A program made the position numbers and the translations under genes. From Patescibacteria group bacterium (lineage in GTDB: Bacteria > Patescibacteriota > Patescibacteriia > Buchananbacterales > UBA6539), in contig JBAZSB010000002.1 of assembly GCA_041662625.1 (NCBI GenBank), forward strand, positions 85,497-149,496: DNA of 64,000 nt, read 5' to 3'. This document shows, in pieces, positions 4,335 through 18,872 of the stretch. The notes below the pieces were generated by a model. That model had not been told where the DNA came from, did not search any database, and was given only the letters and a program-made list of their open reading frames with translations. Every line of letters starts with the position of its first letter. The stretch's first letter is position 1.

Positions 4335-4629
4335 GCCCCTCACCTGAAAAGTTTTTATGTTTTATGTCTATATTCTAAAAAGTAAAAAAGATGGTAGTAT
4401 CTATGTTGGGTATACCAATGATTTAAAAAGAAGATTTTTAGAACATAATAATTTAAAAAGTAAATCAACAAAAAATAAGGCGCCTTTTGAGCTGATCTAT
4501 TATGAGGCCTATAAGGCAATGGCTGACGCCAAATATCGAGAAAATAACCTCAAAAGATTCGCTAAAGCCTATATTCAACTGAAAAGAAGGATTAAAAATA
4601 GCTTAATTTAAACTTTTCAGGTGAGGGGC
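4335..4629 (+). mobile_element. mini-element carrying a GIY-YIG ORF, bounded by perfect 20-bp terminal inverted repeats, inserted at the 5' end of tRNA-Ala
   Basis: GCCCCTCACCTGAAAAGTTT at 4335-4354 and its exact reverse complement AAACTTTTCAGGTGAGGGGC at 4610-4629. 11-bp direct repeat GGGGCCCTTAG at 4325-4335 and 4625-4635; the second copy is the 5' end of tRNA-Ala. Confidence 0.6.
4357..4611 (+). CDS. GIY-YIG nuclease family protein (small, ~84 aa)
   Basis: YVYILKSKKDGSIYVGYTNDLKRRFLEHN is the GIY-(10-11 aa)-YIG motif with the conserved Arg and Glu. Same size class as the second copy at 31038..31292. Confidence 0.85.
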   Translation: MFYVYILKSKKDGSIYVGYTNDLKRRFLEHNNLKSKSTKNKAPFELIYYEAYKAMADAKYRENNLKRFAKAYIQLKRRIKNSLI

Positions 4630-4702
4630 CCTTAGCTCAGTTGGCTAGAGCGCCTCCATGGCATGGAGGAGGCCAAGGGTTCAAATCCCTTAGGGTCCAC
4701 CA
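4626..4702 (+). tRNA. tRNA-Ala (anticodon GGC)
   Basis: Cloverleaf folded by hand: acceptor GGGCCCT/AGGGTCC with the G3:U70 Ala identity pair, D-arm GCTC/GAGC, anticodon stem CCTCC/GGAGG, loop ATGGCAT, T-arm AAGGG-TTCAAAT-CCCTT, encoded CCA. Confidence 0.85.
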
Positions 4703-4805
4703 TATAAACAATTAACTATTGGCAATTAACAGTTAACTCGTTTAGCTGTTTTTTGTTAAACAAATGATAGTTAATTGTTAAAGGTTAACTGTTAATTGTC
4801 GAATT

Positions 4806-4819
4806 GTTCCACGTGGAAC
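4806..4819. promoter_or_regulatory. parS-like 14-bp perfect palindrome GTTCCACGTGGAAC, plus a TTAAC-N-GTTAA palindrome array (4727-4737, 4771-4781, 4786-4796)
   Basis: Differs from the canonical chromosomal parS core GTTTCACGTGAAAC at one symmetric position. Lies about 100 bp beyond the 3' end of the ParB-like gene, between it and tRNA-Ala. Confidence 0.45.
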
Positions 4820-4916: not shown

Positions 4917-6113
4917 CTAAAATCTGGAGCTCTCCTTTGATCCGGAAATTCGCTTTGCCAAGCCGCCTAATTGAGTAGTTAGGGTACGAATTTGCGCCAG
5001 AGCATCATCGTGAATATCTGGGTCTTTACCGGCAAAACTGCTGCCAATAGCAGCTTCCTCACTTTGCAGGACCAGAACCAGACTACCAATTGCCGACATC
5101 ACTTCCCGGCGCCGTTCTTCAGCCACCCGAGCGGCGAGAACTTTGGGATCCTCCTGCCTTCTCTTGCCATCTGGGGCAGCATCAGGTTTTTTAGGCCGGG
5201 GATCGAGCTTTTTGAGTCGTTCTAGTAGCTTCCCGAGGTCTTCCAAAGATCTGGTTAGAACCCTGATAATAGTCTCAAAATCAGTGGTGGCATCCGAGGC
5301 TTTCGGAAAAATCGCTTTGAGTGTCACCACTGGAATATCAAGGGCTCGCTGGAGTGATGTTCCAACCCGCTCAACATGGCGGATCAGGCTACGGCGGACA
5401 TCTCTTGGCCGTGCTGGTTTAGCCGCGGCTGCTCCCTGCTGGCCAGCGACAATTGCCTTGACCTTTTCAACCGCCCGGCCAGTAGCCATCAGCATTACAC
5501 TGGTTGCCACCTTAGCTTGGTCAGCTGGAGGCAATTCGGCGATTTCCTTGGCAACACTAACCGGCAATTCACCTGAAATCACCCGCCGCTTAACGGCATC
5601 GGTAAGTTTCAGCAGGGCTAGCCGATCACGCAGCCAGGGTTCTGACTTCTGAAAGGTATCACAGACCTCAGTCCAGATAGCACCAAGGTCGAGCAATTCC
5701 TGGATGTTTCGAGCAGCTTCCAGTGGCGTATGCGGCAGGCGACCCCAATTACTGCCAATTGCCAGCATTTTCCTGCCTTTTCGGTCATTGACATCAATAT
5801 TCACGACCACCGCTTGAAATGGCCTCCCGTTGAGTTTACAGGATTCAAGGCGATGTTGGCCCTTGATTAACCCATAAGGGTGGCTGGAATCATCGGTTGG
5901 GATGACAATACCCGGCTCTTTCTGGCCATTCCGCTGAATGTTGGGAGCCAGATCAGTCTTGATATAGTCCCAGTTCAACCCGTCGCGGGGCTGTTCCAAA
6001 ACGACAATCAGATCGGTCGGAATACTTAGGACTTCCGAAACAACCTCTACTCCTGCTGGCAACCGAAATTTCGTACTGTCTCTCTCTGCTACTGCTGCGA
6101 CTTGTGCATGCAT
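4917..6113 (-). CDS. ParB-like nuclease domain protein (ParB/Srx fold), in a GC-rich island
   Basis: Start set at the Met preceded by AAAGGAG (6113). IVIPTDDSSHPYGLIKGQHRLESCKL is ParB N-terminal-domain-like (GxxxxHR motif). About 52% GC versus ~37% for the host. Confidence 0.6.
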   Translation of the reverse strand: MHAQVAAVAERDSTKFRLPAGVEVVSEVLSIPTDLIVVLEQPRDGLNWDYIKTDLAPNIQRNGQKEPGIVIPTDDSSHPYGLIKGQHRLESCKLNGRPFQAVVVNIDVNDRKGRKMLAIGSNWGRLPHTPLEAARNIQELLDLGAIWTEVCDTFQKSEPWLRDRLALLKLTDAVKRRVISGELPVSVAKEIAELPPADQAKVATSVMLMATGRAVEKVKAIVAGQQGAAAAKPARPRDVRRSLIRHVERVGTSLQRALDIPVVTLKAIFPKASDATTDFETIIRVLTRSLEDLGKLLERLKKLDPRPKKPDAAPDGKRRQEDPKVLAARVAEERRREVMSAIGSLVLVLQSEEAAIGSSFAGKDPDIHDDALAQIRTLTTQLGGLAKRISGSKESSRF

Positions 6114-6328
6114 AGCTAGATCTCCTTTTACACTGGTTTGTTTTCCTCCTCGATTTCCGATCAAGTCTGCCTAAAAATATGAATTCTTCATGATAGCAAA
6201 GAACAAATAAATACTAAAAGCATTTTATCATTTTAATTTCATTCCAACAAACCAATTAAACTAACAAAAAAGAGGGAGCAAGCAACTCGCCGCTACCCTC
6301 GAAAACCTTTGATCTAAAGACCCAAGTG

Positions 6329-6700
6329 CTACCCCCTCCATAGGCTCCGCAAACTCCGCAATCCTGGCAAAGACCAGAATATAGACGAGTGCCGACCGTT
6401 GGTCGGCTGGGAGGCAGGTTTGGCCAACTGTGTAGGCCGAGCTATCCGAAGAGCCGCAATAAGGCGGGCGTCACAGACTACCTCCTCAAATGGACAAACC
6501 TTGCGGAGTTGGTAGGGATTTATCGTCCTCAGGTTACCATCAGCTCCGAGCAACTGCACCATGGGATCAGCCATCCCCGGCCAGATTGTGACAAGTTTCA
6601 TCGGCCCGGCCCAAGCATCGCCATTGAACTTCGACTCACGCCGATAAACTATTGCCCCTACTGCCACCGTAGTGCCATCACCCAACTTCACTTGTTCCAT
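6329..6700 (-). CDS. hypothetical protein (GC-rich island)
   Basis: Start at the internal Met preceded by GGAGGG (7-nt spacer). No recognisable motif. Confidence 0.4.
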   Translation of the reverse strand: MEQVKLGDGTTVAVGAIVYRRESKFNGDAWAGPMKLVTIWPGMADPMVQLLGADGNLRTINPYQLRKVCPFEEVVCDARLIAALRIARPTQLAKPASQPTNGRHSSIFWSLPGLRSLRSLWRG

Positions 6701-6902
6701 TATCGATCCCTCCACGGTCGTACCGCCAATAAGACCCATGACTCTGACTTAGCAACTGGCTAAGCAGAGATACAGTCAAAATCCTAATATTTGATCGTAA
6801 TATTAAATAAGGTGTTTGTCAATCTTAATAAATTATAGCTAAAGATGTTCCCTGGGAAACAAAAAATCAGCCCTAGCTGGTTGGATTAAATCAAACTAAT
6901 TA

Positions 6903-7706
6903 TTACAAATTTTTCAAAAACGAGGCTGTATCTTTGGGATCAACAGTAATTTTTTTACATAACGGCCAGACTAATTCAAATTGGGATTTAATCAATTCCG
7001 TAAAATCGCGGCTGGTCACGGTGAAACCAAAACTTTCCTTTCTTGAAGAAATAAAAGCAACTTTATCGGCATAAGCCCATAAACCCATATTCCAAGTCAT
7101 GCCTTTGGGCGCTAAACGAATTTCGCGATAGAATTCTTTAGTAATACCTAGGAAAGGATATTGTTTAAATTTCACGGCTTTATCTGAAGGCCAAATAGTT
7201 CGCAAATAAATTTTTTTGCGAATTCTTTTTCTATTATTTTCCGCCAGCCAATCCGCGCCCAGTACCCCAATCATTTCGGAAATCGGCCAAATGACTAAAG
7301 TAGTAATATTTTCATACCACAAAATATCATTAACCGCGCGTCTGACTCCTTCTTGGCCGCTGTAAAATTTGATTTTCGGTTCCAAATAATCAGCTTGGGT
7401 AGAAAGTTTAGGAATAATTTCTTTAAGTTGTTTTTCCTGCTTTTGTAAATTAGAAATTTTATCATTAACTAAACGAGAAATATTTTTAACATCATCAACC
7501 CGGAATAATTTTTTATTTTCCTGATCAATCTCGGTGACTAAGCCTAAGCTGATTAAAATTTTTAAATTATCATAAACCGACGGCCGGGGAATATTGAGAT
7601 TTTCAGCAAGTTGTCTGGCGGAAGAAATGCCAATTTCCAAAAGGCGCAAATAAATTCGCGTCGCGGTTTCGGGGATGTTTAGGTTTTTGAGGATGTCTTG
7701 GAGCAT
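6903..7706 (-). CDS. TrmB-family HTH transcriptional regulator (paralog 3)
   Basis: 267 aa. ATRIYLRLLEIGISSARQLAENLNIPRPSVYDNLKILISLGLV HTH. Same length and layout as the other two paralogs. Confidence 0.65.
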   Translation of the reverse strand: MLQDILKNLNIPETATRIYLRLLEIGISSARQLAENLNIPRPSVYDNLKILISLGLVTEIDQENKKLFRVDDVKNISRLVNDKISNLQKQEKQLKEIIPKLSTQADYLEPKIKFYSGQEGVRRAVNDILWYENITTLVIWPISEMIGVLGADWLAENNRKRIRKKIYLRTIWPSDKAVKFKQYPFLGITKEFYREIRLAPKGMTWNMGLWAYADKVAFISSRKESFGFTVTSRDFTELIKSQFELVWPLCKKITVDPKDTASFLKNL

Positions 7707-7708
7707 TA

Positions 7709-7850
7709 ATGTAAATTACAAATCTCAAGTTCCAAATAAATTACAATTACCAAAATTTCAAATCACAAACCCCTTGAGATCAACGTTTGGAATTTTTAAT
7801 ATTGTGATTTGGAATTTGTTTGATATTTGTAATTTTGGATTTGGTGCTTT
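7709..7850. repeat. long imperfect inverted repeat (~60-bp arms of CAAAT/ATTTG-rich words); copy A of a dispersed hairpin repeat
   Basis: Left arm AAATTACAAATCTCAAGTTCCAAATAAATTACAATTACCAAAATTTCAAATCACAAAC mirrors the right arm GGAATTTTTAATATTGTGATTTGGAATTTGTTTGATATTTGTAATTTTGGATTTGGTGC. A second copy is at 55826-55972. Confidence 0.55.
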
Positions 7851-7945
7851 CTATGATAACGACTAGTAGTTTATAAATCCACTCTAACTATTACCACCTG
7901 AACCACACTTTCAAACTATCACATTTGTCGGTTTTCGTCAACAGA

Positions 7946-7974
7946 TTGACAGTTTTAACCTGCTATGTTAATTT
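7946..7974 (+). promoter_or_regulatory. promoter TTGACA-N17-TAATTT
   Basis: TTGACA 7946-7951, 17-nt spacer, TAATTT 7969-7974, upstream of the GC-rich ORF at 8048. Confidence 0.45.
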
Positions 7975-8047
7975 GAAGCGTTTACCGTGGCAGTAAACCT
8001 AGGGCGTGATAACCAGGTGTGCACCTGAAAAGCTAAGGAGGAGCGTC

Positions 8048-9118
8048 ATGCGAAACAACATAATTACGGTTTTGGTTTCAATGTTAGCAATAACGTCGGC
8101 CTGGGCCGAAGGAAAAACCGAGGCCAGGGACCCGACTAAACGGATCCCAATAATTAAGGTCGGTGACACGGCAACACTGGACTTCTGGGGATTTGGCCAA
8201 GGAGCGTTTGTCGAAGACGCTGAACCTGACGAATTCCAGTGGACCAATCTGAGGTTGTACGGCAACCTGGAGGGGAAGCAACTCGGACTCGGGTTTGTCC
8301 TGAACTTCGCCGACCTGCAAGAGCCAGAAGGTAATTGGCTGCGTGAGCTTTACGGTAAGTTCAAACTGACCGATACCCTGGAAACCCGCGCCGGCCTGAT
8401 CCTGACTTCGGTTGGTAATGGTGAGGCTTTCCCCGGACCGCCCAAAAACGAAACCGTACTTTTCCCCCGAAGCTTACAGTTTGGCCAATATGGCTATGGC
8501 CTTCAGCTTCGCTGGAAAACCGATTTCTGGTCAGTAGTGGCTGACATCACCGGTAATACGGCCTTGCCATTCGATGATCCAAACAAGTTCAAGGATCTCG
8601 AGTTCTCCGGCCGGGTCAAACGGATCTTTCGAAACCACGAGCGCGAACTGGGCTATCTGGGGGGAACCGTTCAATTGACTAAAGCTGTCAACCGATTTGG
8701 TCTCGACGGTCAAGGGCAGCCGACCAAGACGCTGACTCTGCGCGGTGGCGTGTTCTACTCTGACTACGCCAGTGAAAAGCAAAGCAACCAGCTTAGTGGT
8801 TTTGGTCTAGCCGCGTATCGACCAAAGTCTTGGTTCGAAGTCCACACGATGATCGAGGGCACGAAAGATTTCGCCAAGGAGTACCAAGACCTCCAAGAGA
8901 AGAAAGACAAGCAGGGGAATGTCATTCACGATGAGTGGGGGAATATCATTTACGAAGAGGTGACGCGGCGGACATCAGATGCGACCGAAATCAGTTGGAC
9001 CAACGGGGTACGCTTCTTTGGAAAAGATGATCATTGGTCGTTAACGCTAGACTACAAGACTGTGCTGGAGGGACAGCGGGAAGACCAAATCTCGTTACGA
9101 GTGCATATTCCGTTCTGA
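8048..9118 (+). CDS. secreted protein resembling an outer-membrane beta-barrel (signal peptide, C-terminal Phe)
   Basis: Start at the ATG 6 nt after AAGGAGG. N-terminus MRNNIITVLVSMLAITSAWA is a signal peptide. Alternating amphipathic segments, and the protein ends ...ISLRVHIPF with a terminal Phe as in Gram-negative beta-barrels. About 52% GC. Confidence 0.45.
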   Translation: MRNNIITVLVSMLAITSAWAEGKTEARDPTKRIPIIKVGDTATLDFWGFGQGAFVEDAEPDEFQWTNLRLYGNLEGKQLGLGFVLNFADLQEPEGNWLRELYGKFKLTDTLETRAGLILTSVGNGEAFPGPPKNETVLFPRSLQFGQYGYGLQLRWKTDFWSVVADITGNTALPFDDPNKFKDLEFSGRVKRIFRNHERELGYLGGTVQLTKAVNRFGLDGQGQPTKTLTLRGGVFYSDYASEKQSNQLSGFGLAAYRPKSWFEVHTMIEGTKDFAKEYQDLQEKKDKQGNVIHDEWGNIIYEEVTRRTSDATEISWTNGVRFFGKDDHWSLTLDYKTVLEGQREDQISLRVHIPF

Positions 9119-9149
9119 TTCCTCGGAATCCAGGAGAGGGTTACTAGCA

Positions 9150-9185
9150 GCGGCGCTTGCCTTTTGGTGAGCGCTCTTTTTTTAT
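9150..9185 (+). terminator. rho-independent terminator
   Basis: GCGCT..AGCGC stem followed by TCTTTTTTTA. Confidence 0.5.
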
Positions 9186-9301
9186 CTCTTATCCTCAATC
9201 TCCTTGTTAAACAAAACTGAAGCTGCTATAATTGCTAATGAAGGGGGTCGTCGATTAACTATTAAACTATTTAATATTAATTAACAGCTAATTTTAACTT
9301 T

Positions 9302-9820
9302 ATGACGCCATTACCTAATCAGGCGAGTATGCCCAAGCCAGCCGCACCCAAACCAGCTGGTAGTAAACCAAATGTTTGGCTGATTGTCAGTATTATTTTG
9401 GCAATCATTTTAGTTGTCGTTGTGGTTATGAACTATACTGCCAAGCAAGGCGGTCAAGATAAATCTTTAACGACAGTTTTATCAACCCAGGCGGCCGGCG
9501 ATAAATTACTGGATTTTGTTAATAAAATCTATGGCTCTCAATTGGGGGCAATGTCAGTTAAAGAGGTAGCGGAAGAAAGTGGTCTATACAAAGTAATCTT
9601 CAGCCTGACTGATCCGACTACCGGCCAACCAGCTGATCAACCAGCCTTTATTACCAAAGACGGTAAAAAATTCATTCCCCAGGCAGTTGATATCGCTGAA
9701 GCTTTAACTCAGTTCGACGCTTTACAACAGCAGCAACAGGCTGCCCCAACTGCCGGAACTCCAACACCAACACCTGAACCAACACCGACACCGGAGCCAG
9801 AAACTCCCCCAGCAGAATAA
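9302..9820 (+). CDS. membrane-anchored protein with Pro/Thr-rich C-terminal linker
   Basis: One TM helix (WLIVSIILAIILVVVVV), then a globular part, then the tail TPTPTPEPTPTPEPETPPAE. Confidence 0.5.
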   Translation: MTPLPNQASMPKPAAPKPAGSKPNVWLIVSIILAIILVVVVVMNYTAKQGGQDKSLTTVLSTQAAGDKLLDFVNKIYGSQLGAMSVKEVAEESGLYKVIFSLTDPTTGQPADQPAFITKDGKKFIPQAVDIAEALTQFDALQQQQQAAPTAGTPTPTPEPTPTPEPETPPAE

Positions 9821-9918
9821 TAAACAAAAAACTCAAAATAAAAACAACTCTGATTTTTCAGGGTTGTTTTTTTAATTAAAAAACCGAACACTTGACGGCA
9901 GATTATTCCAAGAATTTC

Positions 9919-9949
9919 TTGACAAAAAGAAAAATAATTAGTATTATAA
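9919..9949 (+). promoter_or_regulatory. near-consensus promoter TTGACA-N17-TATTAT(AAT)
   Basis: TTGACA 9919-9924; TATTATAAT 9942-9950. Confidence 0.55.
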
Positions 9950-10031
9950 TGAACTTGATCTTTAGCAATTTATACCATTTGGCAACAGATGTTTTGGCAA
10001 TACAGTCTAACGGTAAAGGGAGGAAAAGAGT

Positions 10032-10784
10032 ATGACCATAACGGTCGGGGAACAGCAGGTGCTTGACGCTTCTATTTCACCTGAGGTCGTAGTGTTGTAT
10101 CACAATGGTTCACGAGAGCCCTTTGGGATCATCAGGATTGAGCACCCTGAGACTATTCAAGCAGTTGACGGAAAGACACTCCAACATCTGCTTCGTGATA
10201 CCAATACGGATTGGCTCAGACTCCAGAGTGTTTCTCTTAGGCAAATTCGGGCGCGGCTCGGATTCGAGAAGTGCCTGAGAGCAGCTCGGGGTTTAGTGGA
10301 AACCATTATTGACACCACCGGTAGAGAGGGGGAATTCCAGCAAGCAGCCAGGCTGCTTGAGGACTACCTCCACCTTCCCAATTTGCGGGAAAGGTTGGAA
10401 AACATCCTCTGCTCGCCGACGACACCAATTGTGGTGAGTCTCGACGAAGTAATTAAGTCCATTGATCAGGACACAACGCCGATAGTCCATGAGTTACTCG
10501 TTGGAATTGAAGAATGCCGCAGTCAAAGTGGGACCATCAATTTGGCCTGGGGCACGCTTCCAGTACGGATTTTCGGCAGCCGGGAAAAACGGAAGTACTT
10601 GGAAACAGTTCTAACCCGACTCGGCGTTTTTCGCCGGCTGGCTCAAGGTCATGACCTACAAGCTATTTGTGACGGCTTACGCGCAAACAATCCAGAGTTG
10701 GCTGCGTTGCCAATCTTCGAGCAAGTGATGCGAAGCTGGCAGAGAGATCTACCTACGGGAACGACGGCAACGACGGCGCAGTAG
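10032..10784 (+). CDS. hypothetical protein (GC-rich operon, gene 1)
   Basis: RBS AAAGGGAGGAAAAGAGT-ATG. 250 aa, cytoplasmic, no motif recognised. Confidence 0.55.
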   Translation: MTITVGEQQVLDASISPEVVVLYHNGSREPFGIIRIEHPETIQAVDGKTLQHLLRDTNTDWLRLQSVSLRQIRARLGFEKCLRAARGLVETIIDTTGREGEFQQAARLLEDYLHLPNLRERLENILCSPTTPIVVSLDEVIKSIDQDTTPIVHELLVGIEECRSQSGTINLAWGTLPVRIFGSREKRKYLETVLTRLGVFRRLAQGHDLQAICDGLRANNPELAALPIFEQVMRSWQRDLPTGTTATTAQ

Positions 10785-10806
10785 ACAAGCGCCAGAAAGG
10801 AATGGT

Positions 10807-11415
10807 ATGAGAATCAATTGGATGGTTCTGGTAGCAACAGCGGCTTTCGTAATTGTGGAGATGGCGATCTCCGCATTGGGCCCAAAGACTGACTTCCCTT
10901 TGTGGAAACACGGGGGAATCTGGGGCGACCTGCTCCTATTCGCCGTGATCAACGCTGTCGTCTGGAATCACCTGCGCCTGCCCGGTCTCTGGGTAGTCGT
11001 GGTGATCCTGATAATCGCTGACACAGCGGCAATAGGAATGCACAAGATGTGGTTCGCCGGCCAGGAAGGCATGACCAGTGGGATTTGGCCGACTTGGCCG
11101 AATAACGGCTGCTGGGGCGGCATGAGCCCTGCTGGTTTCATGCACGTGGCTTTCATGACAACGCAGATCGCGATTCTGCTGCTGTTCGTGCTTTCACCCG
11201 CGCCACCTTCGGTCGTCTGGACCGCCGCCATCCTGCTGACAGCGTTCTGGCCGATCAGCGTCCTCCAGCCGTGCTGGTACATAACCAGCAAGTGGATTGA
11301 CGCGATGGCCATCACCAACTCAGCGATTATGGTGGTCGGCACCTGGGGAGCCTGCTGGGTCAAATTGGCCCGGCCGGAATGGATTAAGTTTGTAGTGAAG
11401 TTAACCAGAGGATAA
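10807..11415 (+). CDS. hypothetical Trp-rich integral membrane protein (GC-rich operon, gene 2)
   Basis: 202 aa, about 5 TM segments, ~57% GC. Confidence 0.5.
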   Translation: MRINWMVLVATAAFVIVEMAISALGPKTDFPLWKHGGIWGDLLLFAVINAVVWNHLRLPGLWVVVVILIIADTAAIGMHKMWFAGQEGMTSGIWPTWPNNGCWGGMSPAGFMHVAFMTTQIAILLLFVLSPAPPSVVWTAAILLTAFWPISVLQPCWYITSKWIDAMAITNSAIMVVGTWGACWVKLARPEWIKFVVKLTRG

Positions 11416-11429
11416 GAAGGAGATACCAG

Positions 11430-11672
11430 ATGGGACAAGACGGATTTACCTTCGACAAACTTATCGGCAAACGGTTCCGCTGCACCAAGACCATGCAGTG
11501 GATCCAAATCACAGCCGACGATAAGGACAAGGCCACTTCAGGAAATGACGGTCATCCTTACTGGGATGTGCCGTGTCCGGAACCGGGATGCGGTGGCTTT
11601 CACCGCTTCTGGCACAAGACCAACAACCACCGGCCGGGCAAAGCCGCACTGGCGCCAACGGCGGAAGCGTGA
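11430..11672 (+). CDS. small Cys/His-containing protein (GC-rich operon, gene 3)
   Basis: RBS AAGGAG 8 nt upstream. CPEPGCGGFHRFWH could be a small metal-binding motif. Confidence 0.4.
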   Translation: MGQDGFTFDKLIGKRFRCTKTMQWIQITADDKDKATSGNDGHPYWDVPCPEPGCGGFHRFWHKTNNHRPGKAALAPTAEA

Positions 11673-11912
11673 CCATGACCAGATGCCAAATTCAACGGTT
11701 CGCCGCCGGAGCTACAGCTTTCTTGAATGACCATGCCACCTGGCGGGCGCAACGCGGAAGAAGGCCATCAATGCCTTACATCAAACTCTGGGCAACCCTG
11801 AAAGCCACCCGGTCTACGTGGTACCGCCAGTAAAGGCAGCAGTGCCACTTCAACGGCAACGGCTAAACTAAGCCCAGTACACCTCGGAGGGGAAGGAGAG
11901 GAATTTATAATA

Positions 11913-11958
11913 AGAGCCCCAGCAGGACACCTTGTCCACTGGGCTCTTTTTCTTTTTA
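11913..11958 (+). terminator. rho-independent terminator ending the GC-rich operon
   Basis: GAGCCCCAG..CTGGGCTC stem followed by TTTTTCTTTTT. Confidence 0.6.
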
Positions 11959-11979
11959 CCTGAGGATAACAACCAAACT

Positions 11980-13482
11980 TTAACCTAAACTTTTCCGGAT
12001 TTTCCCCGATTCAATAATTTCTTTACTCAAAGGCTTTTTTGCCTGCCAAAGATAGTAAATATTGGAAGTGAGATTGCGATGGATAAAATCTGCATTAGTT
12101 TTGGGACCAAATTCCGTCTTAAAATGATTTTCTAAAATCTCAACATCAGTTTGAATCTGCTGCCAGACCCGCTGTTTTTTCGCCAATTGATTCAAATTTT
12201 CTTTATTAAGATAACGCCCGGCTAAAAAAATATCTTTTTTGAAATTGAGATAATATTTTTCTAATCTGATTCCCTTTTTACTCAAAGCCTGCAAGCCGCG
12301 GCCGGTACCGATAAACTCCGGCGGCACGCCCAAAGAATAAAGAATTGCCGTAAAGGGAATTGCCCGGGGCAGATGTCTTTTACCAATCAGGCGGGAATAA
12401 CCAAAAAGGCCGACGTGTAATTTGCGCTCCCGCCGCGACGGCACTTGCTCGGAAAGTTTATTGATTAAATCGGCCAACGGCTCAACGCTTCTTCGATAAA
12501 ACGGCTCAAACGTCCGACAAATTTCTTTGGCTTCCTGGAATTCTTTGGGGTTATAAATTTTAACTGGCGTTTTTGGTAATTTTGAATTCAAAATTTTGAT
12601 GGCCTGCTTAACTTTAGCCAGCGGAAAATCATAACGAAAAGCCGATTGAATATAAACTGTGCGCATCCCGGAATATTCTTTCAAGAAATCAGAAATTCTT
12701 TCCGGCGATAAACTGCCGCGGAAAGGCAGCGTGCCAACACCGATTGCCGGATAAACTTTTATCTTATGATCGCGGCCAAAACGATGATATTCTGATAAAG
12801 CAATTTTGCCTGCCACAACGGCCGGAACTAAGCCGGCATTAAGTGCCGGGTCACTGCGGGCAATATGCAACCTCAAATATTCCGGTTTTACCTTGTATTC
12901 TTTTTGATGTAAAACCAAATAGCGATCCAAAAGCTTGCGGCAGCCAATTAAAGTTTCCATTCGTTCCAAAAGCGGCAGAACGTTAAGGTAAGTAAAGCTA
13001 CAACGCTCATTAAAAAGCCGGCATTTAAACTTGGCCAGCTTGGTAAAAGTTTTTTGGATATAAATAATGTGTTCGGCCTTAATCGTCATTGGCAAAATCA
13101 CTTCAAAAAGCGGCGGATGATGAAATTTCAAATCCCGGGCAAAGCTATCAGCAGTCAGAATCCCCATTAATGCCCGCGTTAAGCCGTAACCTTTCTCCTG
13201 CCAGATATTAGGAATCCGAAAAGTCAAAAATTTATCCTTACCCAGCTGGTTAGTCTGGAAATATTGATGATAAGAATGAAACATTTTATCAACTACGGCT
13301 TCATCAACATATTTACCCTCCCAATCCCACATGAATTCCTGGCAATCTAAATCTTTGAAGGCGGAACAACATTCCAAAACCTCTTCATGGGTGGAAACAA
13401 AACCATCCCCATCTTTTTCCCAATAGGGGGCGCAGGCATTATCCGGATGTTGGGTGGCCATAGTGGCCGGTATTTGGCGCAT
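11980..13482 (-). CDS. ppcA: archaeal-type phosphoenolpyruvate carboxylase (PEPcase type 2)
   Basis: 500 aa. The N-terminus MRQIPATMATQHPDNA matches the conserved (M/S)TQHPDN start of archaeal-type PEPC, and the length fits. Confidence 0.75.
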   Translation of the reverse strand: MRQIPATMATQHPDNACAPYWEKDGDGFVSTHEEVLECCSAFKDLDCQEFMWDWEGKYVDEAVVDKMFHSYHQYFQTNQLGKDKFLTFRIPNIWQEKGYGLTRALMGILTADSFARDLKFHHPPLFEVILPMTIKAEHIIYIQKTFTKLAKFKCRLFNERCSFTYLNVLPLLERMETLIGCRKLLDRYLVLHQKEYKVKPEYLRLHIARSDPALNAGLVPAVVAGKIALSEYHRFGRDHKIKVYPAIGVGTLPFRGSLSPERISDFLKEYSGMRTVYIQSAFRYDFPLAKVKQAIKILNSKLPKTPVKIYNPKEFQEAKEICRTFEPFYRRSVEPLADLINKLSEQVPSRRERKLHVGLFGYSRLIGKRHLPRAIPFTAILYSLGVPPEFIGTGRGLQALSKKGIRLEKYYLNFKKDIFLAGRYLNKENLNQLAKKQRVWQQIQTDVEILENHFKTEFGPKTNADFIHRNLTSNIYYLWQAKKPLSKEIIESGKIRKSLG

Positions 13483-13590
13483 AAACTGAGTTTTATAATA
13501 AAAGTATTATAGCACAGAAACAAAAAAGCTAGAAAACATCAAGGTAAATTGCCTTTTTGGCTTTTAGTAAATATTCCTAAGCTATTTTAC

Positions 13591-13619
13591 TAGACAAAAA
13601 ATTCCCCCGGCGCTATAAT
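13591..13619 (+). promoter_or_regulatory. promoter TAGACA-N17-TATAAT for trxA-trxB
   Basis: TAGACA 13591-13596; TATAAT 13614-13619. Confidence 0.5.
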
Positions 13620-13673
13620 ACTTTTGTCTTTAAAAAAACCACCATTTTTTACGCTTAATAATAAAAACTTATT

Positions 13674-14000
13674 ATGTCTGAACTTAAATTTACTGATGAA
13701 AACTTCCAAGAAGAAGTCATAAACTCCAAAGTCCCAGTTTTAATTGACTTTTGGGCTCCTTGGTGCGGACCTTGTAAGATGCAAGCACCGATATTAGAAG
13801 AACTAGCCAAAGATTTTGAGGGCAAGAAGGTAAAAATTGGTAAACTCAACGTTGATGAAGCCGGGAAATCCGCCAGTCAGTTTCAAATCATGAGTATCCC
13901 CACTCTAATGATATTTAAAAATGGCAAACCCTTTGAACAAATGGTGGGTGTTCAGGATAAAAAAACTCTGACCGAAAAATTGAATAAATTATTAGCATGA
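13674..14000 (+). CDS. trxA: thioredoxin
   Basis: 108 aa with the WAPWCGPCK active site. Confidence 0.9.
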   Translation: MSELKFTDENFQEEVINSKVPVLIDFWAPWCGPCKMQAPILEELAKDFEGKKVKIGKLNVDEAGKSASQFQIMSIPTLMIFKNGKPFEQMVGVQDKKTLTEKLNKLLA

Positions 14001-14956
14001 AATCTGAAGATTTATACGATATTATCATCATTGGCGCCGGGCCAGCTGGACTGACAGCTGGTCTTTATAGTTCCAGACGGACTTTAAAGACTTTAATTTT
14101 ATCCAAAGACTTAGGCGGCCAAGCAGCCATTACCTATGAAGTGGAAAATTATCCCGGAGTTGATTTAACTGATGGTTTCAGTCTGATGAAAAGATTTGCC
14201 GAATCGGCCCAAAAATTCGGGGCCGAGATTAAATACAATGAAGTTAAAAAAATCATAAAACAGGAAGATAAATTTTTAGTCAAAACGGATAACGAAGAAT
14301 TTATTGCCAAGACTTTGGTCTTAGCGTTTGGCTTGATGCCTTCTGATCTCAATGTACCAGGGGAAAAAGAATTTAAAGGTCATGGTGTTTCCTATTGTGC
14401 CACTTGCGACGGGCCACTTTATAAAAATAAAACTGTTGCCGTTATCGGCGGCGGCAATTCCGCACTTGATGCCGCAGAATATTTAGCCAAACTAGCGGCT
14501 AAAGTTTATTTAATCCACCGGCGGGATCAGTTCCGCGGGGAAAAAGTTATTTTGGAAAAACTAAAGAATAATCAAAAAGTAGAAATGGTTTTAAGTTCGG
14601 AAATAAAAGAGATCAAGGGCAACGGAGTAGTTAAATCAATTGTTATCACTGATAATGGTCATGGCCAGCTTAAAGAATTAGAAGTTGATGGTGTTTTTGT
14701 GGAAGTTGGCTACTCGCCAAAAACCGAGTTAGTCAAAGATTTAGTCAAACTCAATGAACGAGGAGAAATTATCACTGACAAAGATTCTAATACTACCCAG
14801 CCCGGCATTTTTGCCTGCGGCGATGTTACTGACTCATCCTATAAACAAATTGTGATTTCGGCCGGCGAAGGCGCCAAAGCCGCTTTGCAAGCCTACAAAT
14901 ATCTTTATTTGGAACGCGGAGAAAAAATTCTGCCTGATTGGGAACAGAAAAAGTAG
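13997..14956 (+). CDS. trxB: thioredoxin-disulfide reductase
   Basis: GAGPAGLTAG FAD motif and CATCDG redox-active site. ATGA start/stop overlap with trxA. Confidence 0.9.
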   Translation: MKSEDLYDIIIIGAGPAGLTAGLYSSRRTLKTLILSKDLGGQAAITYEVENYPGVDLTDGFSLMKRFAESAQKFGAEIKYNEVKKIIKQEDKFLVKTDNEEFIAKTLVLAFGLMPSDLNVPGEKEFKGHGVSYCATCDGPLYKNKTVAVIGGGNSALDAAEYLAKLAAKVYLIHRRDQFRGEKVILEKLKNNQKVEMVLSSEIKEIKGNGVVKSIVITDNGHGQLKELEVDGVFVEVGYSPKTELVKDLVKLNERGEIITDKDSNTTQPGIFACGDVTDSSYKQIVISAGEGAKAALQAYKYLYLERGEKILPDWEQKK

Positions 14957-15001
14957 GGAAAAAGAGTTGATAGAGTGAATAAAGCGATAAAGTTAATAAA
15001 G

Positions 15002-15030
15002 TTAATAGCCCGAAAGGGTTATTTTTGTTA
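15002..15030 (+). terminator. terminator (GAAA tetraloop hairpin + T-run)
   Basis: AATAGCCC-GAAA-GGGTTATTTTTGTT. Confidence 0.5.
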
Positions 15031-15108
15031 TTGACAGAATAATATGCTCTTGCTAAGTTACCAGCAGAAAACAGGGAGGAAGTTTAATCACAATAGGAGG
15101 GCCACAAC

Positions 15109-15669
15109 ATGGCCAAACCAGTAATGGAAAAAGTAGTTCACCCCCTCTTGACCGCTGTTGCCAAAGACGATATCAACTCAGTTACGGATCTCCTGGCCGG
15201 AGAAGGGCAGACAGACGTTCTGGTCCGAGATGAATTTGGCTGCACCGCTTTACACATTGCAACATTCCGAGGCAATGTGGACCTCGCCTTTCTGCTGATC
15301 GATACGATGACCAGGAAAGACGAAAAAAGCCTTGACCTGAAGGAACGGGCTGGCGGCCAAGCCGCGTTGCACATCGCCGCAATGGGCAATACTACGGCCG
15401 AAAAAAAGGCCACCCGGTTGGAAATCGCCCGACTTTTGCTGAGCCATGGCGCCGACATCAACTTGAAGGATAATGGCGAAAGGACGGCACTCCACATCGC
15501 TTGCGCCGACGGCTGGTTGGAAATGGTCCAGTTACTCTGCGAAAAGCGAGAGAAGACCGCCGACATCAATGCGCGCGAACGCTGCACCAGCACAGCCTTA
15601 GGTCTGGCAGAAAAAGCGGGCCACCAGGAGATAGTGGACTATCTCAAAGAACGGGGCGGCACCCGCTAA
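15109..15669 (+). CDS. ankyrin-repeat protein (GC-rich single-gene island)
   Basis: Repeated TALHIA..G..D....LL..GAD.N modules (at least 4). RBS AGGAGGG. About 57% GC with its own terminator. Confidence 0.8.
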   Translation: MAKPVMEKVVHPLLTAVAKDDINSVTDLLAGEGQTDVLVRDEFGCTALHIATFRGNVDLAFLLIDTMTRKDEKSLDLKERAGGQAALHIAAMGNTTAEKKATRLEIARLLLSHGADINLKDNGERTALHIACADGWLEMVQLLCEKREKTADINARERCTSTALGLAEKAGHQEIVDYLKERGGTR

Positions 15670-15705
15670 GCCAAGGCCGCGGCGTGATTATAAGTGGACT
15701 ACAGA

Positions 15706-15742
15706 GACGGCTCGACTCAACTCAGCGAGCCGCTTTTTTTTA
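15706..15742 (+). terminator. rho-independent terminator
   Basis: CGGCTCG..CGAGCCG stem followed by T8. Confidence 0.65.
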
Positions 15743-15794
15743 TTCAAAAACTCAGTTATAATAAATAATACCATTAATAATTTATCAAAAAACT

Positions 15795-16994
15795 ATGCCA
15801 TTAAATGTCTCAAAAAGAACCCAACAATTGATTACTTCGCCCATCCGCAAATTCCTGCCATTAGTAGTGCAGGCGGAAAAAAGAGGGATCAAAGTTTACA
15901 AAATTAATGTCGGTGACCCAGACATTGCCCCCCCACCCCAGTTTTTGCAGACTGTCAAAAAATACAATAAAATAAATATCCGTTATGCTCCGTCCCCGGG
16001 TATTCCTGAACATGTCCAAGCCTGGATTAAATACTATGCCGGTTTTGGTATTAATTTAAAACCGCAAAATATTGTCCCGACCGTTGGCGGCGCCGAAGGC
16101 ATAATTTTGGCAATGATGGCTGTAGCTAATCCCGGCGATGAAATCATTGTCTTTGAACCGCTTTATACCAGCTACAAAGGTTTTGCCACAATGTGCGACG
16201 TTAAACTGGTACCAGTCACTTTGAAAGTGGAAAATAACTTTGCCCTGCCTTCCCAAAAAGAAATCGAAAAAAAGATTACCAAAAAAACCAAAGCCATCGT
16301 TGTTATTAATCCTAATAATCCGACTGGCACGGCTTTAACGGACAAGGAAATAAAGCTGGTTATTAAAATTGCCAAAATTCATAGCCTTTTTATTATTTCT
16401 GATGAAACTTACCGCGAGATTGTTTTTACGGGCAAACCCACCAGCTTGCTAAAATTTTCAGCAGCCAAAAAAAATCTGGTTTTAGTGGACAGCGCTTCCA
16501 AAAGATTTTCCATGCCCGGCGCCCGCATTGGCTGCATTGCCAGTTATAACCCAGATATTATGTGGTCAATCTTAAAACTGGCAATGATCCGGCTCTCCGT
16601 GCCGACTTTGGAGCAATACGGCTTAGTGCCAATTTTAAATAATTCCAAACCCTACACGACCAAACTTCAGCGCGAATACAAAAAGCGCCGTGACGTAATC
16701 TTCAACGCTTTGACTAAAATGCCGGGGGTGGAATGTAAAAAACCTCAAGGTGCTTTCTACATCATTGCTAAGCTGCCGGTAAAAAATGCTGAGGATTTCA
16801 TCAAATTTTTGCTGAATGATTTCAACTACCAGGGTAAAACCGTTTTACTGACTCCGGCGGCAGAATTCTATGTCACCCGTGGCATTGGCAAAAATGAAAT
16901 TCGGATTGCTTATGTTTTAAACACCAAGGAATTAAAGGAAGCAATGGTAGTCTTACAAAAAGCCTTGGAGCAATATCAGCTCTCTACATGCTAA
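15795..16994 (+). CDS. pyridoxal-phosphate-dependent aminotransferase, class I/II
   Basis: 399 aa. SASKRFSMPGARIGC carries the PLP-Lys motif. Confidence 0.75.
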   Translation: MPLNVSKRTQQLITSPIRKFLPLVVQAEKRGIKVYKINVGDPDIAPPPQFLQTVKKYNKINIRYAPSPGIPEHVQAWIKYYAGFGINLKPQNIVPTVGGAEGIILAMMAVANPGDEIIVFEPLYTSYKGFATMCDVKLVPVTLKVENNFALPSQKEIEKKITKKTKAIVVINPNNPTGTALTDKEIKLVIKIAKIHSLFIISDETYREIVFTGKPTSLLKFSAAKKNLVLVDSASKRFSMPGARIGCIASYNPDIMWSILKLAMIRLSVPTLEQYGLVPILNNSKPYTTKLQREYKKRRDVIFNALTKMPGVECKKPQGAFYIIAKLPVKNAEDFIKFLLNDFNYQGKTVLLTPAAEFYVTRGIGKNEIRIAYVLNTKELKEAMVVLQKALEQYQLSTC

Positions 16995-17077
16995 AAAAAT
17001 GGGAACAAAACTTATCAACTAATTATTCACCGATCATTCGACGATTTCCACAACTTATTCAGAGATTATACTAAATT

Positions 17078-17689: not shown

Positions 17690-17797
17690 TAAATTGCTGT
17701 ATAATTAAGTCGGGTATTAAATAAAAAAAATCCCTAATTCCTACCTGCCCGCCGAAGCCTCGGCGGAGGCGGGATTCCTAATTCCTAATTCCTAAAA

Positions 17798-18750: not shown

Positions 18751-18791
18751 TTAGGAAGTAGGTTGTAGGAAGTAGGTTTTAGAATCAACAT

Positions 18792-18813
18792 AGCGCAGAG
18801 GTGCGCTTTTTTT
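18792..18813 (+). terminator. rho-independent terminator
   Basis: AGCGCA-GAGG-TGCGC followed by TTTTTTT. Confidence 0.6.
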
Positions 18814-18872
18814 ATAACTAAGAATTACTAAGCAACCTTAATTCTTGATTCATAATTCTTAATTCTAACCAT

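Follow-up and report, generated by a model that had tools for sequence, protein, structure and literature searches.

Two GC-rich segments, A and B, of a Buchananbacteria-related Patescibacteria chromosome are probably made up of accessory genes in a plastic zone, with segment A encoding an exported, predicted 16-stranded porin-type beta-barrel. This would place a conserved, secreted, porin-shaped barrel in a bacterial group thought to be without an outer membrane. The plastic zone would begin at tRNA-Ala (4626-4702) and extend as far as the thioredoxin genes (13674 onward) of the window, that is, the whole 64-kb stretch of DNA analysed here (Table 1).

Table 1. Features in and around the two GC-rich segments (window positions)
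Feature	Position	Strand	Basis or remarks
TrmB-family transcriptional regulator, 267 aa	6903..7706	-	Pfam TrmB, E 3e-11
Conserved non-coding region, putative promoter/operator	7911..7997	+	Upstream of porin-like gene; blastn, three-way alignment
SD AAGGAGGAG	8035-8043	+	4 nt 5' of ATG at 8048; read from sequence
Porin-like protein, predicted beta-barrel, 356 aa	8048..9118	+	AlphaFold2, Foldseek and family evidence; GC 52%, GC3 0.60
24-nt (8-codon) tandem duplication in polar loop, GNVIHDEW / GNIIYEEV	8914..8959	+	TRF period 24, 1.9 copies
Intrinsic terminator of porin-like gene	9152..9185	+	Hairpin 9152-9175, 10-bp stem, 6 GC pairs, then T-run
172-aa protein, backbone gene between the two GC-rich segments	9302..9820	+	GC3 0.36, no SD
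Sigma-70-type promoter TTGACA-17-TATTAT of operon B	9919..9947	+	11/12 consensus matches
SD GGGAGG	10018-10023	+	Precedes 250-aa gene
250-aa cytoplasmic protein, strain-specific add-on to operon B	10032..10784	+	GC 52%, GC3 0.54
202-aa Trp-rich integral membrane protein, operon B core	10807..11415	+	Hydropathy, homologues; GC 57%, GC3 0.72
SD AAGGAG	upstream of 11430	+	Precedes 80-aa gene
80-aa protein, second operon B core gene	11430..11672	+	Conserved Cys18, Cys49, Cys54, His58; GC 57%, GC3 0.65
52-aa ORF, unsupported	11675..11833	+	Ambiguous codon-position GC
Hairpin and T-run terminator	11912..11958	.	Fold dG -23.7 kcal/mol, z -2.9
PEP carboxylase gene	11980-13482	-	Convergent; shares the 11912-11958 terminator with operon B

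The window belongs to a Patescibacteria metagenome-assembled genome (MAG) of ~39% GC, in keeping with its initial annotation as CPR-like, and the median GC3 of its genes is 0.38. The GC content of 52-57% and the Shine-Dalgarno (SD) sequences ascribed to the two segments in that annotation were confirmed on the sequence. Both segments are real, but they are not the only ones of their kind: four further GC-rich, mostly SD-led genes are present in the window (a ParB-like gene at 4917-6164, 6329-6739, an ankyrin gene at 15109-15669, and 21013-22008). Window-wide, AGGAG, GGAGG or GGGAG is found at -20 to -4 in six of the nine GC3-rich genes and in none of the 53 other (native) genes (Fisher p=1.4e-6). 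SD use is tied to GC-richness in the window far above chance.

The porin-like protein contains a Sec signal peptide at residues 1-21 (nt 8048-8110) with an AWA cleavage motif (N-terminus MRNNIITVLVSMLAITSAWA/EG) and terminates in ...LRVHIPF; the signal peptide and the terminal aromatic residue noted earlier were thus both verified from the translation. No match to Pfam, NCBIfam or PDB sequence profiles was detected. An AlphaFold2 model based on an 11-sequence alignment is an all-beta barrel (pLDDT 78.4, pTM 0.72) with 16 predicted strands, or 18 if a polar hairpin is counted. A Foldseek search with this model gave 234 matches to the PDB at E ≤ 1e-3; outer-membrane channel proteins, mostly classical porins, make up the 50 that were listed. 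Among them are OmpU, OmpT, OmpC, OprP and OmpM1 (E 3e-11 to 1e-8, TM 0.54-0.65), and the top query TM-score among the matches listed is 0.61, for OprP/OprO. A strand dyad analysis identified 16 amphipathic strands with alternating hydrophobic and polar faces and one fully polar hairpin. Strands 5 and 6 are joined by a conserved long, putatively in-folded loop (residues 120-147), and the polar hairpin loop is located at residues 278-308. Within the alignment of 11 homologues, the 8-residue insertion in the latter is restricted to the window protein and P0002, the homologue closest to it. The model thus predicts that the 356-aa protein folds as a 16-stranded porin-type beta-barrel, and the earlier proposal of an outer-membrane-barrel-like secreted protein fared well in this fold test, in which classical outer-membrane porins were the best structural matches.

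The window protein shares with OmpF, OmpC, OmpU and OprP/OprO (Porin_O_P, PF07396; outer-membrane beta-barrel clan) the Sec signal peptide, a mature size of about 335 aa, the 16 amphipathic antiparallel strands of the model, a strand 5-6 loop corresponding in position to loop L3, an acidic and Cys-free composition, and a C-terminal strand with alternating hydrophobic residues and a final Phe. The likeness extends to the Foldseek matches (E to 3e-11) and to weak Porin_O_P sequence matches in 9 of 40 relatives. However, the window protein is no more than 9-14% identical in sequence to porins of solved structure, it lies below every curated family threshold, and its long polar hairpin loop is a further difference from classical porins.

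At E ≤ 1e-3, the porin-like family comprises at least 175 clusters. Its C-terminal strand (...R-x-Q-x-R-F) is conserved, and Phe is the final residue in 124 of 159 members. Unlike classical porins, for which we know of no such coupling or fusion, family members in other lineages often follow a polytopic alpha-helical membrane protein of 415-465 aa or are fused to it. An N-terminal membrane-domain fusion is present in 23 of the 159 members, and L006, the P0015 contig and L017 each carry a separate partner gene ahead of the porin-like gene; in the window, the partner is absent beside the porin-like gene and was not detected elsewhere within the 64 kb. Each of the 11 close homologues is Patescibacteria or CPR-like, as is each of the eight contexts that we examined for the wider family; where homologues or adjacent genes carry an NCBI name, it is Ca. 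Buchananbacteria, Patescibacteria group or Ca. Paceibacterota. No diderm homologue was detected, either among 5.8 billion proteins by word-indexed search or among 1.84 billion representatives, which were scanned in full with HMMER. As far as examined, these proteins form an unnamed, previously undescribed family, confined to Patescibacteria in the eight contexts.

A porin barrel physically tethered to the inner envelope layers is also found in the OmpM-type/SLH-tethered porins of diderm Firmicutes, Deinococcus and Cyanobacteria, and Veillonella OmpM1 is among the Foldseek matches (E about 1e-8). Unlike in OmpM, the tether of the present family, where present, is a polytopic membrane domain and not a peptidoglycan-binding domain, and no SLH domain was detected. 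Another counterpart, likened by description and not by sequence or structure, is Ompbeta of the Thermotogae toga, a porin-type barrel that is a major envelope component in a lineage with an atypical outer layer. It sets an example of barrels that are not housed in a canonical LPS membrane. Thermotogae, however, possess BamA, whereas we know of no BAM machinery, BamA included, in Patescibacteria. In these bacteria, the membrane partner, where present, would substitute for BAM by tethering or assembling the barrel.

Patescibacteria/CPR have been proposed to lack an outer membrane, and reports describe both this membrane and its accessory systems as missing (PMC6744442, PMC12102498), which sets the window protein apart from classical porins. 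The exported barrel would lie beyond the cytoplasmic membrane, in an outer lipid or protein layer of the cell's own or at the host-contact face, and would serve there as a diffusion channel. It is possible, but in our view unlikely, that the barrel is not a transmembrane channel and instead acts as a surface sheath or S-layer unit, as in the Thermotogae toga, or as a secreted pore-former against host membranes. Such a role would suit CPR cells, which are described as having a surface layer and not a Gram-negative envelope (PMC6744442). There is also a precedent in Thermotoga, where a porin-type protein is a main envelope constituent (reference cited in PMC8871954) and beta-barrel trimer arrays have been reported (bioRxiv 10.1101/2022.09.22.508938). 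The membrane-anchor fusions in 23 of 159 members would likewise suit a tethered sheath, and the fast-evolving alleles and duplicated polar loop suggest surface exposure. However, a barrel embedded in lipid requires just such a hydrophobic belt on 16 strands and an aromatic residue at the end, and any arrays would be hypothetical here. Known beta pore-forming toxins, moreover, assemble from oligomers, not from 16-stranded monomers, which argues against a pore-former.

The porin-like gene is transcribed divergently from the TrmB gene, which is of native composition and occupies the same position in L001, L004 and L015 (267 aa, 79-84% identity). The intervening DNA contains a 30-nt invariant block (7925-7954, TTGTCGGTTTTCGTCAACAGATTGACAGTT) with TTGACA at 7946-7951 and a small palindrome (TCAACAGATTGA). 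In blastn comparisons, the upstream region is 30/30 identical in L001, 82% identical in L004 and 87% identical in L015, and the three-way alignment revealed that TAAGGAG of the SD is kept in L001 and L004. Because four related genomes carry the gene in the same TrmB-adjacent slot, behind the 30-nt element and the SD, the gene represents an old resident locus. We infer from the conserved adjacency that the upstream element may be a TrmB operator; in the window's clade, the porin-like gene would then be transcribed from this conserved promoter/operator under the adjacent regulator, a member of a sugar-responsive family. The 172-aa protein encoded downstream contains a single N-terminal membrane anchor (residues 25-43) and a Pro/Thr-rich tail, and its L015 counterpart is 84% identical.

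Segment B contains operon B, for which a consensus promoter and its own terminator had been proposed. Both exist, but they lie in backbone DNA common with L015 (9136-9974 including the promoter, 79% identity; 11898-14955 including the terminator, 86%) and do not belong to an imported cassette, and the terminator is shared with the PEP carboxylase gene. Operon B would be an orphan module, with a backbone promoter driving its expression. Three of the four genes originally assigned to it stand and have neither a known family nor a homologue of known function, whereas the fourth, the 52-aa ORF, does not: 11673-11897 has no counterpart in L015, the ORF was not called in L007 or L013, and it is probably non-coding or a gene remnant. 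The core would pair a Trp-rich membrane protein with a small Cys3His protein, the 250-aa gene being an upstream addition. The former, recognized as Trp-rich from the outset, contains 7.9% Trp, about 5-6 hydrophobic helices by hydropathy and conserved Cys102, Cys156 and Cys183; it has no family match, but its motifs are strongly conserved in homologues from L015 (61%) and L014, P0182 and P0183 (about 80%). The 80-aa protein, which has no family or PDB match, is 46-51% identical to an 83-aa L015 protein that keeps the Cys/His residues and PYWDVPCP...C.G.HRFW. Its motif is C-P-E-P-G-C (CxxxxC), not the CxxGC originally given, and its residues make it a putative zinc-binding mini-protein. Tentatively, and as a guess, the pair may be a membrane complex whose cytoplasmic subunit binds zinc. 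L015, a close relative, lacks the 250-aa gene, which is the sole gene that looks truly strain-specific; the 250-aa product yielded two matches among 5.8 billion proteins, itself and P0013 (59% identity), and no family, PDB or fold match (AlphaFold2 model poor, pLDDT 55).

Porin alleles are ~57-66% identical between relatives and still GC-rich, whereas flanking genes are 73-93% identical. In the sharpest contrast, alleles are 57% identical against 84-93% for the flanks; the L015 allele is equidistant from all others (55-61%), although the L015 backbone is 84-93% identical to the window. Between close relatives, the GC-rich genes in general have diverged much further than the DNA beside them. 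Such diverged yet GC-rich alleles amid conserved flanks point to cassette or allele turnover: the locus would be old and syntenic while its alleles turn over. From strain to strain, the same intergenic slots are also filled by unrelated genes (flavin reductase, DUF1858, ankyrin versus a 203-aa ORF). It is plausible that the GC-rich genes were turned over from some GC-richer gene pool, apparently within Patescibacteria. Conserved flanks, deeply diverged alleles and loop indels or duplications recall Neisseria porB, and different genes in the same slots of close relatives recall accessory-gene hot spots. The differences are that no mobility genes or integron attC-type sites were found and no integrase or att repeats flank either of them, and that a GC3 of 0.6 against 0.38 for the genome, coupled to exclusive SD use, is unusual.

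That selection on these genes (for example on mRNA structure, translation mode or expression level) has kept the high GC and SD, which would then be no relic of a foreign source, with diversifying selection acting on a vertically inherited surface protein, seems to us doubtful. In its favour, the SD and synteny are conserved across genomes, and GC3 stays at 0.50-0.75 in five lineages despite nearly saturated four-fold sites (0.36-0.47 identity, like native genes). However, the distance of the L015 allele from all others despite a backbone so close to the window, and the filling of the same slots by unrelated genes, argue against it. EF-Tu in L006 is not GC3-rich, so high expression alone fails to explain the composition.

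The initial annotation had favoured recent transfer of both segments from a GC-rich donor that uses SD sites, possibly the organism hosting an episymbiont; with a diderm as this donor, the porin would be a captured host outer-membrane protein. The atypical GC and GC3, the confinement of SD use to GC-rich genes, the porin fold with its weak Porin_O_P similarity, the lack of the 250-aa gene in L015, and divergent operon B copies on short contigs of 52-55% GC are all compatible with such an import. We nevertheless consider it improbable and did not retain it: the searches described above found no diderm homologue, all named or contextualized matches are Patescibacteria, and four related genomes retain the porin locus together with its upstream DNA and SD. 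Moreover, porin-like family genes of native composition are present in L017 and L018, and the segments lack integrase genes, att repeats, and plasmid or viral matches.

Despite the sharp compositional steps at gene boundaries, there is next to no chance that the segments are contaminant DNA or assembly chimeras on a CPR contig, and misassembly was excluded: the same joins were assembled independently in L007 (Logan SRR18595301; 100% identical over 9529-19874) and L013 (JGI 3300014208; 99.97% over 10553-13767), and the TrmB-porin junction, with its non-coding DNA, recurs in syntenic position in several MAGs (L001/L002/L003, L004/L005 and L015/L016/L020).

The protein encoded in block A, a GC-rich segment, carries a predicted Sec signal peptide with a signal-peptidase I site (MRNNIITVLVSMLAITSAWA↓EG; AWA↓E), a pattern kept in the aligned homologues, and ends in ...LRVHIPF; both features read from the sequence as the initial annotation had described them. 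The mature protein is acidic and Cys-free. An AlphaFold2 model built from an 11-sequence alignment of this protein and its close homologues (A1; mean pLDDT 78.4, pTM 0.72) is all beta except for the signal helix. A Foldseek search of the PDB yielded 234 matches at E ≤ 1e-3; all 50 of those listed are outer-membrane channel proteins, mostly classical porins, including Vibrio OmpU/OmpT, OmpC/OmpF/OmpK36, chitoporin, OprP/OprO, Campylobacter MOMP and Veillonella OmpM1. The listed porin matches have E-values of 3e-11 to 1e-8 and TM-scores of 0.54-0.65; the top ones are 16-stranded porins, and OprP/OprO show the highest query TM-score (0.61) among the matches listed. When the predicted strands were mapped onto the sequence, 16 were found to have one hydrophobic and one polar face, and two more (residues 278-284 and 302-308) are entirely polar and are therefore read as an external hairpin. 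A closed antiparallel barrel of 16 amphipathic strands, as in OmpF/OprP-type porins, is thus supported by the model, and the earlier suggestion that this ORF encodes a beta-barrel holds, as both structure prediction and Foldseek gave a porin fold and not a non-barrel one. Between strands 5 and 6 lies a 28-residue loop (120-147), which contains invariant G125, P129, T136 and P140 and was modelled at pLDDT below 50; in classical porins, the constriction loop L3 sits between these two strands. An 8-codon tandem duplication is present in a polar loop of the window allele and of its closest homologue (P0002).

The protein has no match in Pfam, NCBIfam or PHROGs. It also has no PDB sequence match in profile searches, which were performed with A1 and four other protein alignments (A2, A3, A5 and A6) and gave nothing significant. 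Matches to DruF/PDC-S26 in PADLOC (E 0.005-0.03) were dismissed as noise. OmpM-type porins, which are tethered by an N-terminal SLH domain, differ from the window protein, in which no SLH domain was detected; none was detected in eight long family members either.

A word-indexed search of 5.8 billion proteins identified no more than 11 relatives, at 34-100% identity; those that are named belong to Ca. Buchananbacteria and a 'Patescibacteria group bacterium', and an A2 profile search of the same database added almost nothing. Among 1.84 billion cluster representatives, a profile built from the 11 sequences detected 175 proteins at E ≤ 1e-3, of which 131 also passed E ≤ 1e-10. The last residue is Phe in 124 and aromatic (F, W or Y) in 134 of the 159 family members retrieved, whose consensus last strand is phi-phi-A-R-phi-Q-phi-R-F. 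Such an alternating C-terminal strand with a terminal Phe is the pattern recognized by BAM in diderms. The C-terminal Phe is described as required in a passage of PMC10629564 that cites Struyve et al. 1991. By a simple heuristic, a signal peptide is present in 95 of the 128 short members. Among 40 members scanned individually, nine gave weak matches to Porin_O_P (best E 7.3e-5; the two with reported scores reached 18-19 bits, below the gathering cut-off of 20.9), and a few matched other outer-membrane barrel families (DUF2490, OMP_b-brl and DUF481). Therefore, distant homology to diderm porins is likely, at sequence scores that do not reach the curated thresholds. These proteins constitute a sizeable, undescribed family of porin-fold proteins.

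Every family context examined (eight, of 175 clusters) is Patescibacteria-like. Among the contigs of related genomes, L001, L002 and L011 belong to Ca. Buchananbacteria, and L004 and L012 to a Patescibacteria group bacterium; genes of L009 match Ca. Paceibacterota entries at 90% identity or more. L006, L017, L018 and the contig encoding the homologue P0015 present small-genome contexts with ribosomal clusters, DUF5667, DUF8128/TrwB and LysM-M23. On these eight contexts of 175 clusters, the family is likely restricted to Patescibacteria. An A1 profile scan of genome contigs detected only the two known Buchananbacteria/Patescibacteria MAGs, and metagenome scans matched only the same lineages. 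Scanning of viral contigs gave no match to the family, and no plasmid was matched by tblastn. No gene for BamA-like or other outer-membrane proteins was found among the ORFs scanned within the 64 kb. CPR bacteria have been proposed to be without an outer membrane, on the basis of microscopy, a monoderm-type T4SS and the absence of PilQ and TonB-ExbBD (PMC6744442; PMC12102498). In the literature searched, we found no prior description of porins, beta-barrels or BamA in Patescibacteria/CPR.

In L006, L017 and the P0015 contig, an ORF of 415-465 aa with several hydrophobic helices lies immediately upstream of the barrel gene and in some cases overlaps it. The ORFs share homology with each other (E 2e-49) and match no Pfam family. 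In addition, 23 of the 159 family members have a membrane domain N-terminal to the barrel (total length 460-790 aa), and the first ∼440 residues of one member, P0028, align to the 415-aa ORF. In the true fusions, our reading of the sequences is that a hydrophobic segment ending in an AxA-like motif replaces the signal peptide. Gene order and gene fusion argue that the cytoplasmic-membrane protein and the barrel are functionally linked, and the 415-465-aa protein is a candidate tether or insertase. No homologue of it is encoded beside the barrel gene of the window or elsewhere in the 64 kb. Partner-like N-terminal parts were also seen in P0028, P0037, P0055, P0080 and P0105, and an RGPP motif is conserved near the C-terminus of the partner.

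The mean GC content of the window is ∼39%, but several sharp GC-rich blocks interrupt it, two of which (blocks A and B) lie within 7940-11970. The GC3 of the genes in these two blocks is 0.54-0.72, compared with a median of 0.38. An AGGAG, GGAGG or GGGAG motif at -20 to -4 precedes six of the nine genes with GC3 ≥ 0.54 and none of the 53 others (Fisher p=1.4e-6), giving strong statistical backing to the impression in the initial annotation that the GC-rich genes use SD sites; its sequence-level observation was confirmed overall. As the window contains further GC-rich, mostly SD-led genes (see table), blocks A and B represent one instance of a genome-wide gene class. Four-fold-site GC at conserved residues did not cleanly separate the porin genes from native genes, and therefore the GC3 contrast lies mainly elsewhere. 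Several window proteins are identical to NCBI entries from a MAG titled 'Patescibacteria group bacterium' (locus tags WC675_050xx, 172-kb contig), and the background genes are typical of CPR (GyrA, FtsH, trigger factor, NusA, type IV pilus ATPases, VanW and an archaeal-type PEP carboxylase). At the position of the ankyrin-repeat gene, L015, a close relative, contains an unrelated GC-rich gene for a 203-aa protein on the opposite strand.

An independent Logan assembly (L007, SRR18595301) matches window 9529-19874 at 100% identity, and a JGI contig from another sample (L013, 3300014208) matches 10553-13767 at 99.97%, which shows that block B is genuinely joined to its flanks on both sides. Other, separately assembled MAGs reproduce the join of TrmB to block A together with the conserved non-coding DNA. 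Chimerism is excluded for practical purposes.

Features of the window and of contigs from related genomes (positions on the contig named)
Feature	Contig	Position	Remarks
TrmB-family paralogues	window	2863-3666, 6903-7706	clustered
TrmB-family paralogues	L004	3868-4608, 6868-7626, 8680-9483	clustered
ParB-like gene	window	4917-6164	GC-rich; adjoins tRNA-Ala
136-aa protein without assignment	window	6329-6739	GC-rich; 42% homologue in L015
Palindromic intergenic element	window	7713-7849, 55835-55970	∼137 nt; imperfect
Palindromic intergenic element	L015	609-739	one copy
SD of block A	window	8035-8043	AAGGAGGAG; precedes ORF 8048-9118
Block A ORF, porin-like protein	window	8048-9118	356 aa; GC 0.52, GC3 0.60
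Hairpin and T-run	window	9152-9185	3' of block A ORF
172-aa gene	window	9302-9820	native composition; separates blocks A and B
Near-consensus promoter	window	9919-9947	TTGACA-17-TATTAT; block B begins 3' of it
Block B ORF	window	10032-10784	250 aa; SD-like site upstream
Block B ORF	window	10807-11415	202 aa; SD-like site upstream
Block B ORF	window	11430-11672	80 aa; SD-like site upstream
Hairpin/T-run	window	11912-11958	dG -23.7 kcal/mol, z -2.9; past block B end
PEP carboxylase, archaeal-type	window	11980-13482	minus strand; PEPcase_2, E 8e-127
Ankyrin-repeat protein	window	15109-15669	GC-rich; SD site
Two-gene cassette, proteins without assignment	window	21013-21549, 21568-22008	GC-rich; SD sites on both
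Acyltransferase_3	window	32446-33639	moderately GC-rich
Tandem repeats of 7-nt units	window	4770-4808, 17774-17795, 18837-18866, 19675-19703, 22175-22199, 46357-46383, 46537-46570, 47337-47375, 55828-55890, 61396-61418	
103-aa ORF	L001	9688-9999	between SD and barrel gene
80-aa ORF	L004	9741-9983	two-helix; between SD and barrel gene
Flavin reductase	L015	5099-5899	between SD and barrel gene
Two DUF1858 proteins	L015	7183-7422, 7663-7896	near porin-like gene
Partner ORF	L006	8757-10004	polytopic membrane protein
Partner ORF	L017	1169-2566	polytopic membrane protein

A homologue of the porin-like gene occupies the same site in L001, L004 and L015, lying downstream of the same 267-aa TrmB gene and divergent from it, and the series of genes for thioredoxin, thioredoxin reductase, an aminotransferase, RNase HII and a methyltransferase follows further on, as in the window. 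Three genomes share an identical 30-nt intergenic block (7925-7954) with TTGACA and a small palindrome, and the upstream SD (TAAGGAG) is conserved across genomes as well. Nothing intervenes between this SD and the barrel gene in the window; the ORFs found there in the three relatives are listed in the table. The small genes, GC-rich or unrelated, that flank the barrel gene in the relatives are all read from the same conserved promoter/SD region.

Between the window and L015, PEP carboxylase is 93% identical, thioredoxin 94%, thioredoxin reductase 93% and TrmB 84%; the barrel protein is 57.5% identical. The L015 allele is roughly equidistant (55-61%) from all other alleles, and the alleles of the more distant genomes L001 and L004 are 66% and 62% identical to that of the window, respectively. 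Our first reading, simple vertical inheritance of the porin, was revised because of this incongruence of the L015 allele. The barrel alleles are all GC-rich relative to their own genomes (GC3 0.50-0.75); L017 and L018 contain family members of native composition. From these comparisons, the simplest reading is an ancient regulated locus, the occupant of which has been repeatedly replaced or has evolved under strong diversifying pressure. Both processes are typical of exposed surface proteins.

The initial annotation had proposed recent acquisition of the GC-rich segments from an SD-using donor, possibly the host of an episymbiont. An integrative element at tRNA-Ala was rejected because att-like repeats are absent: no tRNA-Ala fragment of at least 11 nt is repeated, and no flanking direct repeats were detected. 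Base composition and codon usage are indeed atypical, as seen in GC3 and SD use. The barrel gene is present, and not missing, at the same site in L001, L004 and L015, and no donor lineage closer than the vertical relatives was found: the best homologues are all from Patescibacteria, and no diderm donor is visible among the homologues. Searches of 4.7-13.7 kb against Pfam, NCBIfam and PHROGs identified no integrase or transposase, the ParB-like gene being the only plasmid- or phage-type gene nearby. Given the old syntenic locus and the lack of a diderm donor or of any integrase or att site, recent acquisition from a host was not borne out, and this description should be replaced by that of slots for accessory genes in which alleles or cassettes turn over rapidly within Patescibacteria.

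Two minor features of this region were also noted. TrmB-family paralogues are clustered both in the window and in L004. The two window copies of the ∼137-nt palindromic element (hairpin dG -31.7, z -3.0), one of which lies between TrmB and the porin promoter, are ∼80% identical; the element may represent a REP/MITE-like repeat or act as a bidirectional terminator.

Structure prediction shows a Sec-exported protein with a 16-stranded porin fold, belonging to a conserved family with a barrel-closing aromatic C-terminus, and sequence-based prediction likewise shows a conserved regulatory region adjoining a TrmB-family regulator. The barrel would be sited beyond the cytoplasmic membrane and form a diffusion channel there, and its expression may respond to the TrmB-type regulator. 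The TrmB family contains sugar-responsive regulators, and sugar-metabolism genes (PFK and GFO/IDH/MocA oxidoreductase) flank the porin locus in L001 and L004. Where a lineage has the membrane partner, this protein would tether or insert the barrel. The barrel may be received by an unrecognized outer layer of CPR cells, by a protein sheath, or, where the cell attaches to a Gram-negative host, by the outer membrane of that host. [quoted passage not shown] The persistence of this class might reflect a gene pool or translation regime of its own.

These results touch on two open questions, namely whether the CPR ancestor lost an outer membrane and how such tiny cells take up host nutrients. Present genome-based arguments about the CPR envelope rest on the absence of outer-membrane components, and a porin-fold family with a signal peptide and a BAM-type C-terminal strand would provide a concrete and directly testable counter-example. 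The family, a surprising one for the phylum, includes members from Paceibacterota and Buchananbacteria-like lineages at least, and both gene order and gene fusion link it to a novel membrane protein. If the barrel assembles without BAM, the partner would represent a barrel insertase or tether of a new kind; were the barrel to enter the host membrane, this would be a new parasitic mechanism. Furthermore, SD use is strictly tied to the GC-rich accessory genes, which offers a clean natural system for studying the limits that translation initiation sets on gene flow.

Operon B, the gene group of block B, remains an orphan. Its 250-aa protein is a near-orphan even among 5.8 billion proteins, where the only hits were the protein itself and, on a short contig, one relative of 59% identity; the gene is absent from L015. 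An AlphaFold2 model from these two sequences (pLDDT 55) gave only meaningless Foldseek matches (E ≥ 0.49), and a 251-aa ORF located after the porin gene in L004 was rejected as a homologue (BLASTP E 0.98). Cluster look-up and L015 reveal the 202-aa membrane protein and the small one of ∼80 aa as a conserved pair, located in L015, as in the window, between the 172-aa gene and PEP carboxylase. For the membrane protein, identity is 61% to the L015 homologue and ∼80% to the L014 and P0182 variants; for the small protein, identity to that of L015 is 46% by BLAST and 51% across the full alignment. The conserved motifs of the former (KHGGIWGDLLLF, GCW.GMS and QPCWYIT) and the conserved Cys18/Cys49/Cys54/His58 and PYWDVPCP of the latter show, at the level of sequence conservation, that both are real proteins. 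Tentatively, the two may form a small membrane complex with a putative zinc-binding cytoplasmic subunit. The operon B proteins have no match in Pfam, NCBIfam, PHROGs or PDB profile searches, or in PADLOC-DB at E ≤ 0.1, and thus no known anti-phage defence component was detected at that threshold. Viral contigs gave no match to the 250-aa or 202-aa protein or to the membrane-protein alignment.

The promoter and terminator that the initial annotation assigned to the operon are both present. The DNA around them can be aligned to L015 at 79-86%, and on this alignment both elements are part of the backbone and not of an imported cassette. The possible fourth gene, a 52-aa ORF (11675-11833), is not counted here: it lies in a 225-nt stretch without an L015 counterpart, was not called in L007 or L013, which are two other assemblies of the same sequence, and shows ambiguous codon-position GC. 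Similar to block A, the block B genes diverge far more between close relatives than their flanks do. A divergent copy of operon B is present in the short NCBI contigs L008 and L014 (GCA_041643015.1/GCA_041643025.1), in which nucleotide identity is uneven (67% for the 250-aa gene and 84% for the membrane gene), a perfect inverted repeat lies between these two genes, and the 3' end of the membrane gene is replaced after ...VKLA. This pattern points to recombination within the operon B module. Archaeal-type PEP carboxylase is present in the window and L015 lineages; at the corresponding site, L001 and L004 instead contain a GC-rich GFO/IDH/MocA oxidoreductase gene and a gene for a CoA-binding protein. 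Elsewhere in the window, tandem repeats of 7-nt units (3-9 copies; e.g. ATTCCTA, CTTAATT, CCTACCT and AAGCTAA) were observed, many of them in leaders directly upstream of SD-less native genes.
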